From: a virus
UHGV virus genome: UHGV-1580203
Strand: one strand, 5' to 3'
DNA: 11,573 nt
The notes under the pieces: model-generated
Seen by the model: only the letters and a program-made list of their open reading frames with translations
Told to the model about the DNA's origin: nothing
Databases searched by the model: none
Shown here: piece by piece, positions 1-8,336 of the stretch
How the letters are laid out: each line of letters begins with the position of its first letter
How positions within the stretch are numbered: position 1 is the first letter of the stretch
Program-made: the position numbers and the translations under genes

Positions 1-52
1 CAACGACCTTCTAAGTCGTGGGCCGCAGGTTCGAATCCTGCAGGGCGCGCCA
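1..52 (+). tRNA. argU: tRNA-Arg(UCU), 3' portion only (5' part lies upstream of window)
   Basis: Seen: anticodon stem-loop ACGAC/CTTCTAA/GTCGT with TCT anticodon at 10-12, T-arm GGTTCGAATCC at 29-39, acceptor 3' strand GCGCGCCA ending CCA at 50-52. Matches my recollection of E. coli argU; only the 3' 52 nt are visible. Confidence 0.85.
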
Positions 53-67
53 TTACAATTCAATCAG

Positions 68-1231
68 TTACGCCTTCTTTATATCCTCCATAATTCCACA
101 GTGGGACATATTTGGGACATTATCACCAAAAATGTCGTCTATTTTCCTTGCATGCTCTGTCAAATGATTAGGCGCAAGGTGAGCATACCTACGAACCATT
201 TCTATGGACTCCCATCCGCCCATTTCCTGAAGCACAGATAATGGGACGCCTGACTGGATCAGCCAGCTTGCCCAGGTGTGTCTGAGGTCATGGAAACGGA
301 AATCTTCAATTCCTGCACGACGACAAGCTGATAGCCATGATGTCTTGCTGTCGATGCGCATCTTCCTGACCGCAGGCGTTGATGTTCCATCTGCTCGCTT
401 AGCCGCCTTGGTATGTACAAACACCCATTTGTGATGCTTGCCTATTTGATCACGCAACACTTTACAGGCGGTATCGTTCAGCGCCACACCAATGGCGCGG
501 TTTGATTTGCTCTCTTCTGGATTCACCCAGGCAACTCGTCGCTGCATGTCGATTTGTTGCCATTCCAGATTTATGATGTTCGACTTTCTCAGACCAGTTG
601 CCAGCGCAAACTTGACGACAGATTTCAGTGGTTCGGAGCACTCATCAATAAGGCGTTTTGCTTCCTCCTTTTCCAGCCATCTGACTCGCTTGTTTCTGAC
701 CGCTGGTATCTTGATGACAGGCGCTTTTTCCAGCCACTTCCAGTCGCGTTCTGCAGCACGGAGAATGGCCTTTATCATGGCAAGATGCTTTGCCTTTGTC
801 TGAGTTGATACTGGCTTTGGTTCATAAACAGGCGGTTCTTTACCTTTCCTGATGGCGGCCTGAACTTTCTGTTTCCATATTTCTTTCGTCTTTCTGTTAT
901 GCATTCTGCTTACAGCAGAGTAAATCTTTGCCTCCGAGATATCTTTAAGCCTTATACCCTCAAAATGTTCAAGCCAGAACTCAATCCGGCTTTTATCTGA
1001 ATCGAGAGATTTTTTATCAGCTTTTTCCTCAAGCCATCTTAGGCAGGCCTCTTCAAAAGTGACATCAGGTAAATCCCCTAGCTTTTCTACTCGCCAGAGT
1101 TCTGCTTTTCGCTTGTCGTGCAACTCCTGAGCTTGCCGCTTGTCCTTTGTGCCAAGAGATTCCTTAATTCGTTTCCCGCCCGGGAGCGAATACGAGGCAT
1201 ACCATATTTCATTTCTGCGGAAGAGTGACAT
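68..1231 (-). CDS. int: Tyrosine-type phage integrase (P22/DLP12 IntD-like)
   Basis: 387-aa ORF ending 15 bp from the tRNA 3' end; C-terminal [15 protein letters not shown] and RRYAHL motifs typical of tyrosine recombinase R-H-R-Y catalytic core; RBS GAGGAAA upstream of ATG at 1231; N-terminus MSLFRR...WYASY resembles P22-family Int by recollection. Confidence 0.95.
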
Positions 1232-4032: not shown

Positions 4033-4080
4033 TTTGCTGCTCCTCATCATATCGACCCTGCAAGGTCGGTTGGTTTCTCC

Positions 4081-4169
4081 ACAAAACAGAGAAGAACACC
4101 TGCGGTGGCAGCCGCCCGGATGGATTGGGTTATGAGCCCGTCGTCCGGTGATGCTCTTCTCTGTTTTGT
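4081..4169. repeat. Long imperfect inverted repeat (18-bp arms, one mismatch) flanking a 53-bp GC-rich core
   Basis: Seen: 4081-4098 ACAAAACAGAGAAGAACA versus reverse complement of 4152-4169 (ACAAAACAGAGAAGAGCA); on the minus-strand RNA the mismatch becomes a G-U wobble, giving an 18-bp stem; inner segment has CCGGA/TCCGG pairing. Confidence 0.6.
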
Positions 4170-4460
4170 AAAAAGAGCGGTGCCAGCCGGAAGCAAGTGT
4201 ACAAACTGGTACCGCCAAAGCAGTGGCTGTTGTGGTGCCGGGTGCCTCCCGGTGCCTGGCGAAGGTTGCACACCAGGCGGGTGGGTATCCACAGAAGGTC
4301 GACTGTCAGCCTCAACCTTAACCCGCGTGCGCTGAGCCGCATTCACCACAACGCTAAGGATTCTCTCTGGTTGAAAATACTTAGCTGTTATGTGCCTGCT
4401 TTTAGCCACATCAGGCGAGGTGGACCTGGTTATTCCCCAACAACAAGGATTCGGTTAATC

Positions 4461-4489
4461 TTGATACCCCCAATAACATGGTGATTATT
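4461..4489 (+). promoter_or_regulatory. Candidate promoter for the 167-aa plus-strand gene (-35-like TTGATA, A/T-rich -10-like GATTAT/TTATTT)
   Basis: TTGATA at 4461-4466 and a -10-like hexamer 16-18 bp downstream, ending a few bp before the ATG at 4494 (transcript would be near-leaderless); by eye only. Confidence 0.3.
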
Positions 4490-4493
4490 TAAG

Positions 4494-4997
4494 ATGGACA
4501 AATTTGATAGAAGTGCACAAAGGCAGTTGTTACAAATACTGTATGATGCTCATCCTTATGAAATTTCTGATGATGCGTTGCAGTCTGTTCGTGACGCATT
4601 TGGAGATGATAATGTCCTAATTTCGAACTTAATTTATCTCGAAGAACATGGCTTGATTAAGAATGCTCTTGATTATTACTTGGATGGCATAAATATAAAT
4701 ATTCCTGAATTAAGAATTACTAAAGATGGAATTGATTTCATTCGTGATGATGGAGGTCTTAAAGCTATTCTTGGGATTATGACAATAAGATTGCATGATG
4801 AGACTCTCTGTGAACTTGAACGTATCATCAATAGTTCTACTTCTGCCACGACTGAAGATAAGAAGAAATTACTCTCTCAGCTTCGAACGCTTCCTGCCGA
4901 CGCCATAAAACAGCTGACGATTCGATTACTTGGTCAGGGGCTTGACCATCTGCCGGACGTATTTCACGTAATTCAAAAAGCCCTCCATTCTCTGTAA
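4494..4997 (+). CDS. Orphan 167-aa protein, unknown function (AT-rich moron in the immunity-adjacent slot)
   Basis: Uninterrupted 167-codon frame through visibly A/T-rich DNA with A/T-ending codons, opposite in orientation to the flanking early-left operon; followed by a plus-strand intrinsic terminator at 5175-5198; no family recognised. Confidence 0.6.
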   Translation: MDKFDRSAQRQLLQILYDAHPYEISDDALQSVRDAFGDDNVLISNLIYLEEHGLIKNALDYYLDGININIPELRITKDGIDFIRDDGGLKAILGIMTIRLHDETLCELERIINSSTSATTEDKKKLLSQLRTLPADAIKQLTIRLLGQGLDHLPDVFHVIQKALHSL

Positions 4998-5130
4998 ATT
5001 CTGATTCTGGTCGGATTAGACAGAATCGTCCCCATCCGACCTGCTTACTAAGTAGAATCCAGAATTCGTCTTGTTGGTTGGTGCTGATAAAAAATCCATT
5101 AGGATGAACGTAAGCACAGAATATGACCAT
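4837..5130 (-). CDS. Possible small protein (97 aa) antisense-overlapping the 3' end of the 167-aa gene; uncertain
   Basis: ATG at 5130 preceded by AAAGAGGGTTCT (GAGGG RBS, about 5-nt spacing); first ORF downstream of the putative pL; overlaps the convergent gene by about 160 nt, so it may be a shadow ORF. Confidence 0.25.
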   Translation of the reverse strand: MVIFCAYVHPNGFFISTNQQDEFWILLSKQVGWGRFCLIRPESEFTENGGLFELREIRPADGQAPDQVIESSAVLWRRQEAFEAERVISSYLQSWQK

Positions 5131-5159
5131 AGAACCCTCTTTTGTTACGGGGATACTAA

Positions 5160-5174
5160 GATTGTTAAAGAGCT
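5160..5174 (-). promoter_or_regulatory. boxA-like element (AGCTCTTTAACAATC on minus strand) immediately 3' of the antisense hairpin
   Basis: Minus-strand sequence GCTCTTTAACAAT is a 13-nt contiguous match to the rrn-type boxA consensus as I recall it (TGCTCTTTAACAATTTATCA); lies on the pL-transcribed strand directly after the 5198-5175 hairpin. Confidence 0.45.
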
Positions 5175-5198
5175 AAGCGTCCTGTAGGGCGCTTTTTT
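5175..5198 (+). terminator. Rho-independent terminator for the 167-aa gene transcript
   Basis: Stem AAGCGTCC (5175-5182) / GGGCGCTT (5187-5194) with one G-U pair, loop TGTA, then run of six T (5193-5198). Confidence 0.6.
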
Positions 5199-5364
5199 GT
5201 TGCTAACGAATCATCCTGGACTTCATATGCCCCAGGCGGCTACTTCGTGGGCGTCCTGCCTGTTCGTTTTTGACATTTACTGACTGCTTACGACACATGC
5301 ACCGTGTTGCAACCAGATTTTGTTGTAATCCTGTAGTTGGTCTGGAACAAAAGATAAAATTAAA

Positions 5365-5401
5365 TTGCGAGATATGCAAGTGATATTTGCGAGATATGCA
5401 A
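5365..5401. promoter_or_regulatory. OL-like operator pair: two identical 15-bp sites TTGCGAGATATGCAA separated by 7 bp, with overlapping leftward promoter (pL-like)
   Basis: Seen: exact direct repeat at 5365-5379 and 5387-5401; same TTGCGNGATANGCAA pattern as the site at 6169-6183 in the cI-cro intergenic region; minus-strand TTGCAT -35-like hexamers lie within the sites. Confidence 0.6.
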
Positions 5402-5410
5402 ATTTATAGG

Positions 5411-5435
5411 TAATAAAAAGCCACCTTTCGGTGGC
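5411..5435 (-). terminator. Rho-independent terminator downstream of cI
   Basis: On minus-strand RNA: GCCACC-GAAA-GGUGGC (6-bp stem, GNRA-type tetraloop) followed by UUUUUAUUA; 20 nt downstream of the cI stop. Confidence 0.65.
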
Positions 5436-5455
5436 CGATGGATGGGATATTGAGG

Positions 5456-6148
5456 TTAATTATGTCTCTTAAGGGTTTGCGACTGACTGATTAAGACCTT
5501 TCCAAAGACCATGAATCGGTGTTCGTTTTCGCTAGTAATTCCCCATTCACGGTAAATCTGGTTATCAGAAATCACCAGCAGTTTGTCAGGAATCATTTGA
5601 AGTCTTTTAACGTATATTTTGTCATCAAAACCAAAGACATATATACCATCACCATCAAACTGATTGATGCTGACATCAACGAAGATGAGATCTCCTGGCT
5701 CAATGGTTGGACACATACTGTCCCCACGAACGTTGATAACTTTGATGTGATTGGCTGGTCGTCCGCCGAACATTGATACAGCATTATCAGTTCTGTATTC
5801 GATGGCATGAATCACATCAATGACATCACCGCCCTGGATAAGGCCATTTCCCGCACTGGCACTGATATCCAGCATTTCAATACGGAACACATCCTTCACC
5901 TGCGCAACATCCTCATTATTACTGTTTTTATATACAGTATTACTTTTGTGGGCAGAGGTAAAGAGATCAGCAATATCAACACCTAAGCTCTTGGCAATAT
6001 TACTCAGTGTTTGTTCGGTAAATTGTTTTTGCTTACCCGTTTCTAAGCGCGAGATGTTCGCCGCATCTACTCCTATCGCTTCAGCGAGATCGGCGATTTT
6101 CATGTTCTTCGCTTGGCGAAGTTGTCTGACTCGGTTTCCTATGTTCAT
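5456..6148 (-). CDS. cI: CI-type prophage repressor (N-terminal HTH, C-terminal LexA-like S24 autopeptidase domain)
   Basis: 230 aa; N-terminal HTH (VRQLRQAKNMKIADLAEAIGVDAANISRLETGK); C-terminal GDSM (catalytic Ser) and VKRL (catalytic Lys) motifs of the S24 family; divergent from a cro-like gene. Confidence 0.93.
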   Translation of the reverse strand: MNIGNRVRQLRQAKNMKIADLAEAIGVDAANISRLETGKQKQFTEQTLSNIAKSLGVDIADLFTSAHKSNTVYKNSNNEDVAQVKDVFRIEMLDISASAGNGLIQGGDVIDVIHAIEYRTDNAVSMFGGRPANHIKVINVRGDSMCPTIEPGDLIFVDVSINQFDGDGIYVFGFDDKIYVKRLQMIPDKLLVISDNQIYREWGITSENEHRFMVFGKVLISQSQTLKRHN

Positions 6149-6245: not shown

Positions 6246-6506
6246 ATGCAATCACCATTACGAAATGTGCGTAAGGCGCATGGTTTCACTTTGCAGCATG
6301 TTGCTGCGGGTGTTCAAGTCAATCCAGCGACGTTGAGTCGTATTGAGAGGCTGGAGCAGATTCCATCTATCGAGCTTGCAGAACGTTTAGCCAATTTTTT
6401 TAAGGGTGAAGTCAGCGAAATGCAGATTCTTTATCCGGCACGTTTTCAATCTAGCCAAAACCAGAATGGGTTTAAACCACAGGAACAGGAGGTGAACCGT
6501 GGGTAA
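6246..6506 (+). CDS. cro: Cro-like HTH transcriptional regulator (XRE family)
   Basis: 86 aa; HTH segment GFTLQHVAAGVQVNPATLSRIERLEQ; first gene rightward of the operator region, divergent from cI; GGAGG RBS. Confidence 0.88.
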   Translation: MQSPLRNVRKAHGFTLQHVAAGVQVNPATLSRIERLEQIPSIELAERLANFFKGEVSEMQILYPARFQSSQNQNGFKPQEQEVNRG

Positions 6507-7050
6507 GCATCACTGGAAAGTAGAAAAACAGCCTGAGTGGTACGTGAAAGCTGTCAGAAAAACTATCGCAGCGTTGCCGGGGGGGTACGCTGAAGCTGCT
6601 GACTGGCTGGATGTAACAGAGAACGCATTATTTAACCGCCTTCGTGCCGATGGCGATCAGATTTTCCCGCTGGGATGGGCAATGGTTTTGCAACGTGCTG
6701 GTGGAACTCACTTCATTGCTGACGCTGTGGCGCAGTCTGCAAATGGCGTCTTTGTGTCTCTTCCTGATGTCGAGGATGTGGACAACGCCGATATCAACCA
6801 ACGCCTGCTGGAGGTCATTGAACAGATCGGCAGTTATTCAAAACAGATTCGTTCAGCAATTGAAGACGGTGTAGTGGAACCGCATGAGAAGACAGCAATT
6901 AACGACGAGCTGTACCTCTCAATTTCGAAGCTGCAGGAGCATGCAGCACTGGTCTACAAAATCTTTTGCGTTTCAGAAAGTAGTGACGCCCGCGAGTGTG
7001 CAGCTCCGGGCGCCGTGGCGTGTCGTGACTGTGGAGAAACTAACGCATGA
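6499..7050 (+). CDS. CII-like or YdaT-like regulatory protein candidate (function by position only)
   Basis: 183-aa ORF starting at GTG 6499 (RBS AGGAGG upstream), overlapping the cro stop; position immediately after cro is where cII-type or YdaT-type proteins sit; the CDS is clear but the family assignment is weak. Confidence 0.75.
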
Positions 7051-7385: not shown

Positions 7386-7405
7386 AGGTCGGTCATGAGC
7401 ACTAA
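7226..7405 (+). CDS. Candidate small protein (about 59 aa, TTG start) in an alternative frame, not in the supplied ORF track
   Basis: RBS GAAGGAGA at 7211-7218 then TTG at 7226; frame reads [59 protein letters not shown] to stop at 7403-7405; protein-like composition; overlaps the O-like start by 11 nt. Confidence 0.35.
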
Positions 7406-8336
7406 ATTAACCGGCTATGTATGGGATGGTTGCGCTGCATCAGGCATGAAATTATCCAGCGTGGCAATTATGGCCCGCCTGGCTGATTTCAGTAATGACG
7501 AAGGTGTGTGTTGGCCATCAATTGAAACCATTGCCCGTCAGATTGGCGCGGGGATGAGTACCGTCAGGACGGCTATCGCACGGCTGGAAGCAGAAGGCTG
7601 GTTAACGCGTAAGGCGCGTCGCCAGGGTAACCGCAATGCGTCGAATGTTTATCAGCTTAACGTTGCGAAGCTTCAGGCAGCGGCATTTTCTCAACTGTCA
7701 GATTCTGACCCGTCAAAATCTGACGCATCAAAATCTGACCCGTCAAAATTTGATGCGTCGAAATCTGGCAAAAAAGCGGGTTTTCACCCGTCAGAATCTG
7801 GCGGGGATCCGTCAGTAAAATCAAAACATGATCCGTCAGATAAAAAACCTTCTCGTCCGGACGCTTCGCAACCGGACACGCAGACGGATGAACAGGATTT
7901 TTTAACTCGCCATCCTGATGCGGTTGTATTCAGCCCTAAAAAGCGCCATTGGGGAACGCAGGATGATTTGACCTGCGCACAGTGGCTCTGGAAAAAAATC
8001 ATCGCCCTGTACGAGCAAGCCGCCGAATGTGACGGCGAGGTGGTTCGTCCCAAAGAACCGAACTGGACAGCCTGGGCAAACGAAATTCGCCTGATGTGTG
8101 TGCAGGATGGTCGTACTCACAAACAAATCTGCGAGATGTACAGCCGCGTCAGCCGCGATCCGTTCTGGTGCCGTAACGTGCTCAGCCCGTCGAAGTTGCG
8201 GGAAAAATGGGATGAGCTTTCCCTGCGCTTATCACCGTCCGTCAGCACGTACACCGAAAAACGCGAAGACCCGTACTTCAAATCCAGTTACGACAACGTG
8301 GACTACAGCCAGATCCCGGCAGGATTCAGGGGGTGA
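7395..8336 (+). CDS. Replication initiator protein (lambda O-like architecture: N-terminal HTH domain, iteron-encoded linker, C-terminal domain)
   Basis: 313 aa; N-terminal HTH-like segment (WPSIETIARQIGAGMSTVRTAIARLEAEGWL); central low-complexity linker encoded by tandem DNA repeats (see ori feature); RBS GAGG upstream of ATG 7395. Confidence 0.85.
   Translation: MSTKLTGYVWDGCAASGMKLSSVAIMARLADFSNDEGVCWPSIETIARQIGAGMSTVRTAIARLEAEGWLTRKARRQGNRNASNVYQLNVAKLQAAAFSQLSDSDPSKSDASKSDPSKFDASKSGKKAGFHPSESGGDPSVKSKHDPSDKKPSRPDASQPDTQTDEQDFLTRHPDAVVFSPKKRHWGTQDDLTCAQWLWKKIIALYEQAAECDGEVVRPKEPNWTAWANEIRLMCVQDGRTHKQICEMYSRVSRDPFWCRNVLSPSKLREKWDELSLRLSPSVSTYTEKREDPYFKSSYDNVDYSQIPAGFRG
7690..7850. repeat. 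Origin-like iteron array inside the initiator gene: four to five 15-bp tandem repeats (TCTGACSSRTCAAAA) followed by spaced GATCCGTCAG repeats and an A-rich tract
   Basis: Seen: units at 7705-7719, 7720-7734, 7735-7749, 7750-7764 and degenerate 7765-7779; CCGTCAG at 7789-7795, 7810-7816, 7834-7840; ATAAAAAA at 7841-7848. Lambda ori likewise lies within O as iterons plus an A/T-rich region. Confidence 0.7.

Follow-up and report, generated by a model that had tools for sequence, protein, structure and literature searches.

The early-left region of the prophage

The DNA analysed here, hereafter the window, is a whole stretch of 11,573 nucleotides (virus genome UHGV-1580203) that belongs to the CPS-53/SfII-like type of temperate prophage. 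At its left end, the 3' end of a tRNA (positions 1-49, plus strand) adjoins an integrase gene (68-1231, minus strand), which is followed on the same strand by yfdT/R/Q/P-like early-left genes. We take the anticodon loop of this tRNA to be that of tRNA-Arg(UCU). The position of the tRNA 3' part beside the integrase gene makes it a likely attachment site, and E. coli NCTC86 has an identical layout next to an annotated tRNA-Arg. The cI-like repressor gene (5456-6148, minus strand), which encodes HTH and S24 peptidase domains (Pfam HTH_3 and Peptidase_S24), sets the orientation of the early-left operon. On the plus strand lie cro (6246-6506) and a CII/YmfL-like gene (6499-7050). From position 5205 rightwards, including the cI-cro region, the window shares 99.5% DNA identity with Shigella phage SfII. 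The replication O-like gene (7395-8336) contains inverted and direct repeats resembling CTGACCCGTCAAAA at 7696-7770 (plus strand), to which a spurious match to a miRNA family drew attention; these repeats are probably origin iterons.

A putative pL promoter (TTGCAT-17-TATCTT), identified by reading the sequence and by comparison with relatives, overlaps two operator repeats, TTGCGAGATATGCAA, at 5351-5403 on the minus strand, with its hexamers at about 5379-5351. Agreement with the promoter consensus is weak (7/12), and a promoter scan of the region did not detect it. The same hexamers are present in phage mEp460, and relatives have consensus promoters at this position and in the same orientation. 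Upstream of pL lies the terminator of the cI-like repressor gene (5419-5436, minus strand), which was found by terminator scan and is annotated as a terminator in phage SfII.

Downstream of pL, the operon is interrupted by a gene that runs against it. This accessory, moron-like gene of 167 aa (4494-4997, plus strand) has a low G+C content of 0.31-0.37, matches phrog_3983 over its full length (E=2.6e-59) and carries the RefSeq annotation WP_000357060.1. A promoter-like sequence, TTGATA-16-GATTAT, is located at 4461-4488 (plus strand) and ends 5 nt before the ATG at 4494; if this promoter is real, the mRNA of the gene is leaderless or nearly so. Since the gene is real and oppositely oriented, the pL transcript must cross it in antisense, over a stretch of about 750 nt (4410-5160, minus strand) that is probably untranslated. 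The sole same-strand ORF in this stretch, of 97 aa (5130-4837), has no family match in PHROG and Pfam scans. The antisense RNA includes a C-rich, G-poor segment (4800-4641) whose C/G ratio of 2.4-2.9 lies above the background (median 0.96, maximum 2.15) and above any value in the coding part of the operon. No convincing intrinsic terminators were found on the minus strand of the pL operon, leaving Rho as the main threat to pL transcription, and the antisense stretch is predicted from its composition to be Rho-sensitive.

Adjacent to this stretch, positions 4231-4350 (minus strand) give a sub-threshold Rfam match to the sRNA family STnc100 (35.6 bits against a gathering score of 47; E=8e-5). 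The match falls within a stretch of 62% G+C that is kept in all related loci and overlaps a weakly supported ORF (4047-4409); it may represent an RNA and not a protein-coding segment.

The boxA and the hairpin

A boxA, GCUCUUUAACAAU, is located at 5161-5173 on the minus strand, about 180 nt downstream of the putative pL and on the strand of cI and the early-left genes. The 13-mer GCTCTTTAACAAT (5173-5161) is identical at 13/13 positions to the E. coli K-12 rrnB leader boxA, where it lies directly 3' of the boxB hairpin. Even with three mismatches allowed, the window contains no other match, and an exact 13-mer match is expected by chance at 3.4e-4 per window. Within it, GCTCTTTAACA (5173-5163, minus strand) shows no mismatch to GYTCTTTAANA, the published functional boxA consensus of gammaproteobacteria (PMC5725501), and there is no other perfect match to this consensus in the window. 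The element is a candidate binding site for NusB-NusE. The terminator scan shows no minus-strand terminator between pL and boxA, and in relatives the consensus promoters lie 90-110 nt upstream of boxA.

Conservation of the element was assessed in 16 unique variants, which were found through the leader RNA described below and the hairpin, without boxA as a key. The boxA is intact in all 16 variants, and variation is confined to position 10 (C/A) and the base preceding the G, both of which are degenerate in the consensus. Similarity among the variants drops off right after boxA. This pattern indicates that boxA is under its own constraint. An initial annotation of this DNA, which had noted a 13-nt rrn-type boxA on the pL-transcribed strand, had made its reading depend on conservation of the 13-mer in related prophages; both the match and its conservation, degenerate positions aside, are borne out. 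The sequence that follows boxA is CTTAGT in the window and CTGGAT in most relatives and in the rrn spacer. Most relatives carry GCTCTTTAACAATCTGGAT, in which the leader boxA runs into the CTGGAT that extends the boxA of the rrnB spacer, and with it the 17-mer GCTCTTTAACAATCTGG. Further along, at 5135-5160 (minus strand), a partly conserved motif reads CTGGATATCC(C)NAAC in most relatives and CTTAGTATCCCCGTAAC in the window; it does not resemble boxC.

Other components of known antitermination sites were searched for around boxA. The sequence after it, CUUAGUAUCCCCGUAACAAAAGAGGG, forms no stable hairpin that could serve as a boxB, and the first 60 nt downstream of boxA contain nothing like the boxC of the rrnB leader, which is GU-rich and UGUGUGGG-like. 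The initial annotation had proposed looking for a second boxA as the nutR equivalent; on the plus strand to the right of cro, a search that tolerated 3 mismatches to the 13-mer, or 1 to the consensus, brought up none. In agreement with the same annotation, which had seen no N-like ORF nearby, PHROG and Pfam scans of the ORFs in the 11.6-kb window identified no arginine-rich, N-like family. Two ORFs were considered individually and rejected. As an N analogue, the 97-aa ORF at 5130-4837 was discarded because it is not arginine-rich and matches nothing in PHROG or Pfam. A 31-aa ORF rich in arginine and lysine (5298-5203) is unlikely to encode an N-like peptide, as in relatives the frame has lost its start or ends sooner, and the differences compensate one another in the RNA.

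Directly upstream of boxA on the pL strand is a hairpin that was initially annotated as having a dual use, and both sides of that description hold. On the plus strand, the scan and the fold identify a predicted intrinsic terminator for convergent transcription (5175-5203). Its hairpin, AAGCGTCC-TGTA-GGGCGCTT (5175-5194), has an 8-bp stem with one G.U pair and a TGTA loop, and is followed by T6 within TTTTTTGTT. It ranks first among the terminator-like sites of the region and folds at -11.5 to -12.1 kcal/mol, with AAAGAG paired to the U-tract. The G+C-rich stem-loop, the U-run and a gene upstream on the same strand are all as expected of an intrinsic terminator, predicted here to act 178 nt past the stop codon of the accessory gene at 4997. 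In many relatives, the terminator lies 10-60 nt past the stop codon of opposite-strand genes and is the first terminator there.

On the minus strand, the antisense image of the terminator, consisting of an A6 run and a weak, interrupted hairpin (5175-5200), immediately precedes boxA in the position of the rrn boxB. The hairpin-then-boxA order, described at the outset as rrn-like, does match both the rrnB leader and the 16S-23S spacer. On the pL RNA, this hairpin folds at only -7.5 kcal/mol (centroid -3.9), and a C.A mismatch replaces what is a G.U pair on the plus-strand RNA. The same asymmetry extends across 30 variants, with means of -10.3 kcal/mol for the opposite strand and -6.3 kcal/mol for the pL strand and a more stable opposite-strand fold in 28 of them (Wilcoxon 3e-6). 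Two variants (L063 and L178) have acquired extra G.U pairs through transitions, which are paired on the opposite strand only, and no selection for pairing on the pL strand was seen across the 30 variants. This strand asymmetry indicates that the hairpin is maintained as a terminator of inserted, reverse-oriented genes. From these comparisons, the hairpin is under selection as opposite-strand RNA and not as a boxB on the pL RNA, where its boxB-like look is a by-product. The weaker hairpin on the pL RNA should result in less unwanted termination in the pL direction.

An insertion slot and a conserved leader RNA

Of 5426 complete E. coli genomes, 753 (about 14%) contain the hairpin-boxA block (5159-5206), which is also found in phages SfIV, PhiR29_1, PhiR49_1, Kati and others. 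Among species-representative Enterobacterales genomes, the unit occurs in 23, from genera that include Escherichia, Shigella, Citrobacter, Enterobacter, Kosakonia and Buttiauxella, as well as Raoultella, Sodalis, Symbiopectobacterium and more. The left flank of the window is common to only 65 of the 753 block-bearing E. coli genomes, and to the left of 5159 most sequences with the unit depart from the window. Sharp mosaic boundaries fall at 5151-5159, 5205, 5268 and 5296. Homology with SfII and SfV begins at 5205, homology with mEp460 and Stx2a phages begins at 5296, and other E. coli prophages have 4480-5268 in common with the window. Mosaic boundaries also coincide with the start and stop codons of the 31-aa ORF.

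Genes that follow the block are predominantly oriented against the operon. Loci that share the leader RNA were compared as modules, with the dominant ORF within 600 nt scored by strand on the basis of ORF length and PHROG matches. The dominant ORF is on the opposite strand in 18/19 modules with boxA and in 14/51 modules without it (Fisher p=3e-7, the modules not being phylogenetically independent). Likewise, in 22 of the 23 genome loci the nearest ORF of 90 aa or more downstream of boxA is on the opposite strand and ends 24-236 nt past boxA; in the remaining locus (L235), a 167-aa opposite-strand ORF comes after a 100-aa same-strand ORF. Five PHROG families, unrelated to one another, account for the opposite-strand ORFs (3983, 5286, 1244, 7681 and 6315). 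Given this variety, the block marks the edge of a slot and is not part of one gene: it is a portable edge for reverse-oriented accessory genes, tied neither to one gene nor to the immunity region. The possibility that boxA forms part of the module of the 167-aa gene was rejected, both on the restricted flank (65/753) and on the occurrence of at least four other gene families after the unit. SfIV-type modules carry a small, genuine same-strand gene (phrog_1744) about 45 nt after boxA, ahead of the antisense stretch. Some relatives, such as L071, L057, L103 and L073, lack a boxA even though opposite-strand genes follow their leader RNA, indicating that boxA is not indispensable there.

Immediately upstream of the block, the pL transcript contains a conserved, structured leader RNA of about 70 nt (5199-5271, minus strand) that is unannotated and is recognized by a covariance model at 96.4 bits. 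It consists of an outer stem, P1, a small hairpin (GGC-AGGAC-GCC), an invariant single-stranded stretch and a hairpin, P3, with the loop GGCRUAUGAA (a conserved 12-nt loop). The invariant core spans 27 nt, CAGGCAGGACGCCCACGAAGUAGCCGC. Covariation is strong in two helices: across 46 distinct sequences, pairing holds in 95.7% of the cells and compensatory changes are seen at 8 of the 11 pairs, values that none of 500 shuffles reaches; slid controls pair at 18-45%. An independent set, collected through boxA instead, bears this out with 92.3% paired. Each phage has one copy, located at the start of the pL transcript or close to it, and the phages concerned come from E. coli, Shigella, Salmonella, Citrobacter, Yersinia, Pantoea, Pectobacterium and Klebsiella. 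A comparison with Rfam returned no family, only chance-level matches to the terminator hairpin, and none of the papers in the library searched contains the core sequence. As a possible new cis-acting RNA of phages, the leader RNA is a candidate in its own right.

What lies downstream of the leader RNA differs between loci: in some it is a hairpin-boxA unit, in others the start of a gene or a long hairpin of the Salmonella type, and in L107 it is a put-like element. Ten of the 23 genome loci with the hairpin-boxA unit have no leader RNA, and most leader-RNA loci are without boxA. In L107, a sequence very like HK022 putL follows about 20 nt after the leader RNA. The leader RNA was itself considered as a put homologue and rejected: it does not align with HK022 putL, its covariance model is blank on HK022 and L107 has both elements. 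In L192, L212 and the L139 group, a hairpin resembling put stem I stands directly before boxA, as though boxA had replaced put stem II; L142 and L177 belong to the same set of loci. Such put-stem/boxA arrangements may be hybrid antiterminators. In Salmonella-type loci, among them L009, L094, L167 and L184, a segment of about 200 nt closed by a long-range stem, GUGUCUUCGGGAGGGG ... CCCCGCCCGAAGAUAC, comes after the leader RNA and is sometimes succeeded by the hairpin-boxA unit. This segment may be a further structured leader element.

A proposed role for the block and its relation to known systems

Stand-alone boxA elements that act on Rho termination are established for the suhB leader (Baniulyte 2017, PMC5725501) and for CRISPR arrays (Stringer 2020, PMC7665894). 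The boxA of the window is best read as a site of this kind, a stand-alone Nus-factor loading site that would make pL transcription Rho-resistant over about 750 nt of untranslated antisense RNA, a reading to which we assign a probability of roughly 0.6 from the sequence comparisons. The block of about 45 bp (5159-5203) would then do a separate job on each strand. On the plus strand, it would act as the Rho-independent terminator of the reverse accessory gene (4494-4997), keeping transcription of that gene out of pL/OL and out of cI antisense. On the pL RNA, the rrn-type boxA would recruit NusB-NusE(S10), and the resulting complex with NusA, NusG and SuhB would turn RNA polymerase Rho-resistant, as at rrn operons and ahead of CRISPR arrays. 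The polymerase could thereby get through an antisense region of about 750 nt or more that is untranslated and in part C-rich, and pL transcription would reach the yfdP/Q/R-like genes, xis and int without N. The suggestion in the initial annotation that antitermination is N-independent fits this evidence; its alternative, an unrecognised factor, is not needed, although the upstream leader RNA leaves room for one. Two potential sources of experimental support were set aside. One is phage mEp460, which comes from a collection assembled by selecting for Nus dependence and whose pL leader has neither boxA nor leader RNA; the other is the mEpimmI paper, which deals with a different, N-bearing phage group.

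The leader RNA also suggests another arrangement, in which boxA is half of a larger N-independent antiterminator whose main, put-like part is the leader RNA (5271-5199), with boxA adding Nus factors. Its location directly upstream, which in most relatives is the very start of the pL transcript, its strong covariation and a core that is invariant across genera are all consistent with such a joint device, as is the succession of put-like stem and boxA in L192, L212 and L139. However, the distribution described above shows the two elements to be independent, the leader RNA model does not hit HK022 put, and the presence in L107 of a leader RNA together with a full put-like element argues that the leader RNA is not itself an antiterminator. 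A joint device of this type is therefore rather unlikely.

It is also improbable that boxA has no role in the pL RNA. In that case, the block would be kept as a terminator with its 3' UTR, the A-rich tract pairing with the U-run, or as a recombination 'linker' of phage modules. Selection on the plus-strand hairpin and the pairing of AAAGAG with the U-tract would be expected of a terminator, and mosaic boundaries do fall at both edges of the unit, at 5205 and at 5159 or 5151. Yet a terminator has no need of 13-17 bases identical to the rrn boxA, and it would not explain why variation is confined to consensus-degenerate positions or why the orientation of boxA to the early promoter is constant. 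The 17-mer, moreover, recurs after early promoters in unrelated phages, including T7, where the hairpin is absent.

Equally, boxA could act in the opposite sense, as a Nus-dependent repressor or attenuator. Modelled on suhB and on lambda N autoregulation, in which a Nus complex is tethered at boxA, this would involve blocking translation of a downstream ORF, promoting Rho termination and damping early-left expression. The ORF concerned would start about 30-45 nt downstream, being 5130-4837 in the window and phrog_1744 in SfIV-type phages. The spacing is suitable: boxA lies 31 nt ahead of the ATG at 5130, which has a good Shine-Dalgarno sequence (AAGAGGG), the small gene of SfIV-type modules is genuine and lies about 45 nt past boxA, and the suhB precedent requires a boxA no more than about 50 nt from the start codon (PMC5725501). 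Most modules, however, have no same-strand gene after boxA and instead present an opposite-strand stop codon within 11-60 nt, while the 97-aa ORF of the window matches no family. There would also be no obvious benefit in attenuation right at the start of an operon bound for xis and int, and such a function is doubtful at best.

A true lambda-type nutL, served by an N-like protein encoded elsewhere in the phage, is very improbable: boxA does belong to the nut sites of lambda, P22 and phage 21 (PMC2800207) and lies, as nutL does, just downstream of pL and before the first early-left genes, but the order of hairpin and boxA is reversed, there is no boxB after boxA and no nutR partner on the pR transcript, the hairpin is selected on the opposite strand, no N-like family occurs among the window ORFs and the basic 31-aa ORF is not conserved as a reading frame, so that the nutL equivalence first proposed for this element does not stand in the lambda sense.

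A stand-alone, Rho-countering boxA has a wider implication that we put forward tentatively. The hairpin-boxA block could be a portable two-way insulator for backwards accessory genes in the early-left operon, with one strand terminating the insert and the other loading host Nus factors without N, thereby preventing polarity. Together with the leader RNA, which could be a new element that binds RNA polymerase or another factor, the block might define N-free early antitermination in SfV/ST64B/ZF40-like phages. In phages, boxA is usually treated only as part of N-dependent nut sites, whereas N-independent protection from Rho by boxA is accepted for rRNA, suhB and CRISPR arrays. A perfect lone boxA in a large and common N-less prophage family, joined to the terminator of a reverse gene, suggests a simple rule for how phages tolerate inserts that oppose an essential operon, and such a rule would also account for the recurrent mosaic boundary.

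Among known systems, the rrn antiterminator (boxB-boxA-boxC, acting with Nus factors, S4 and SuhB) shares with the block the same 13-nt boxA, the hairpin-then-boxA order and independence from N, and the expected effect is alike in that untranslated RNA is shielded from Rho. Hairpin and boxA are separated by A here, by ACT in the rrnB leader and by TT in the rrnB 16S-23S spacer. The two differ in that the hairpin of the window doubles as a terminator on the other strand and is not kept as a structure on the boxA-bearing RNA, and in that the site lies in a phage early operon and not before a structural RNA. The closest functional analogue is the boxA of CRISPR arrays and suhB, a single GYTCTTTAANA element with neither boxB function nor a phage protein, which acts on Rho-dependent termination of poorly translated RNA. 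In the prophage, by comparison, the RNA is the antisense of an inserted gene and boxA is fused to the terminator of that gene, an arrangement known from sequence.

HK022 put is likewise a cis-acting, N-independent device on the early-left transcript, and the corresponding slot of L107 holds a put-like element. Its sequence and structure are nevertheless unrelated to those of the block, with nothing beyond short words of similarity in the window, and put overcomes intrinsic terminators and does so independently of Nus factors. The early leader of T7-like phages contains the identical 17-mer, 63 nt past the T7 A3 start, between promoter A3 and gene 0.3 (L215, 813-829), where it is unannotated in the T7 record; six T7-like contigs (L143, L144, L148, L161, L183 and L187) carry it exactly. 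We know of no demonstrated function for the T7 boxA, and a literature search on it found nothing. The presence of this 17-mer after early promoters of many unrelated phages argues for a general function of boxA. In T7, no reverse terminator is attached and boxA is followed by a translated same-strand gene, which shows that the antisense rationale is local to this prophage family and not general.

Lastly, the insert and its terminator resemble moron cassettes, which comprise their own promoter, a gene and a terminator; here too, a low-G+C gene runs against the flow of the operon and is closed by an intrinsic terminator. The block differs from such cassettes in that its terminator is common to at least five unrelated inserted genes and the other strand carries a predicted anti-polarity signal.
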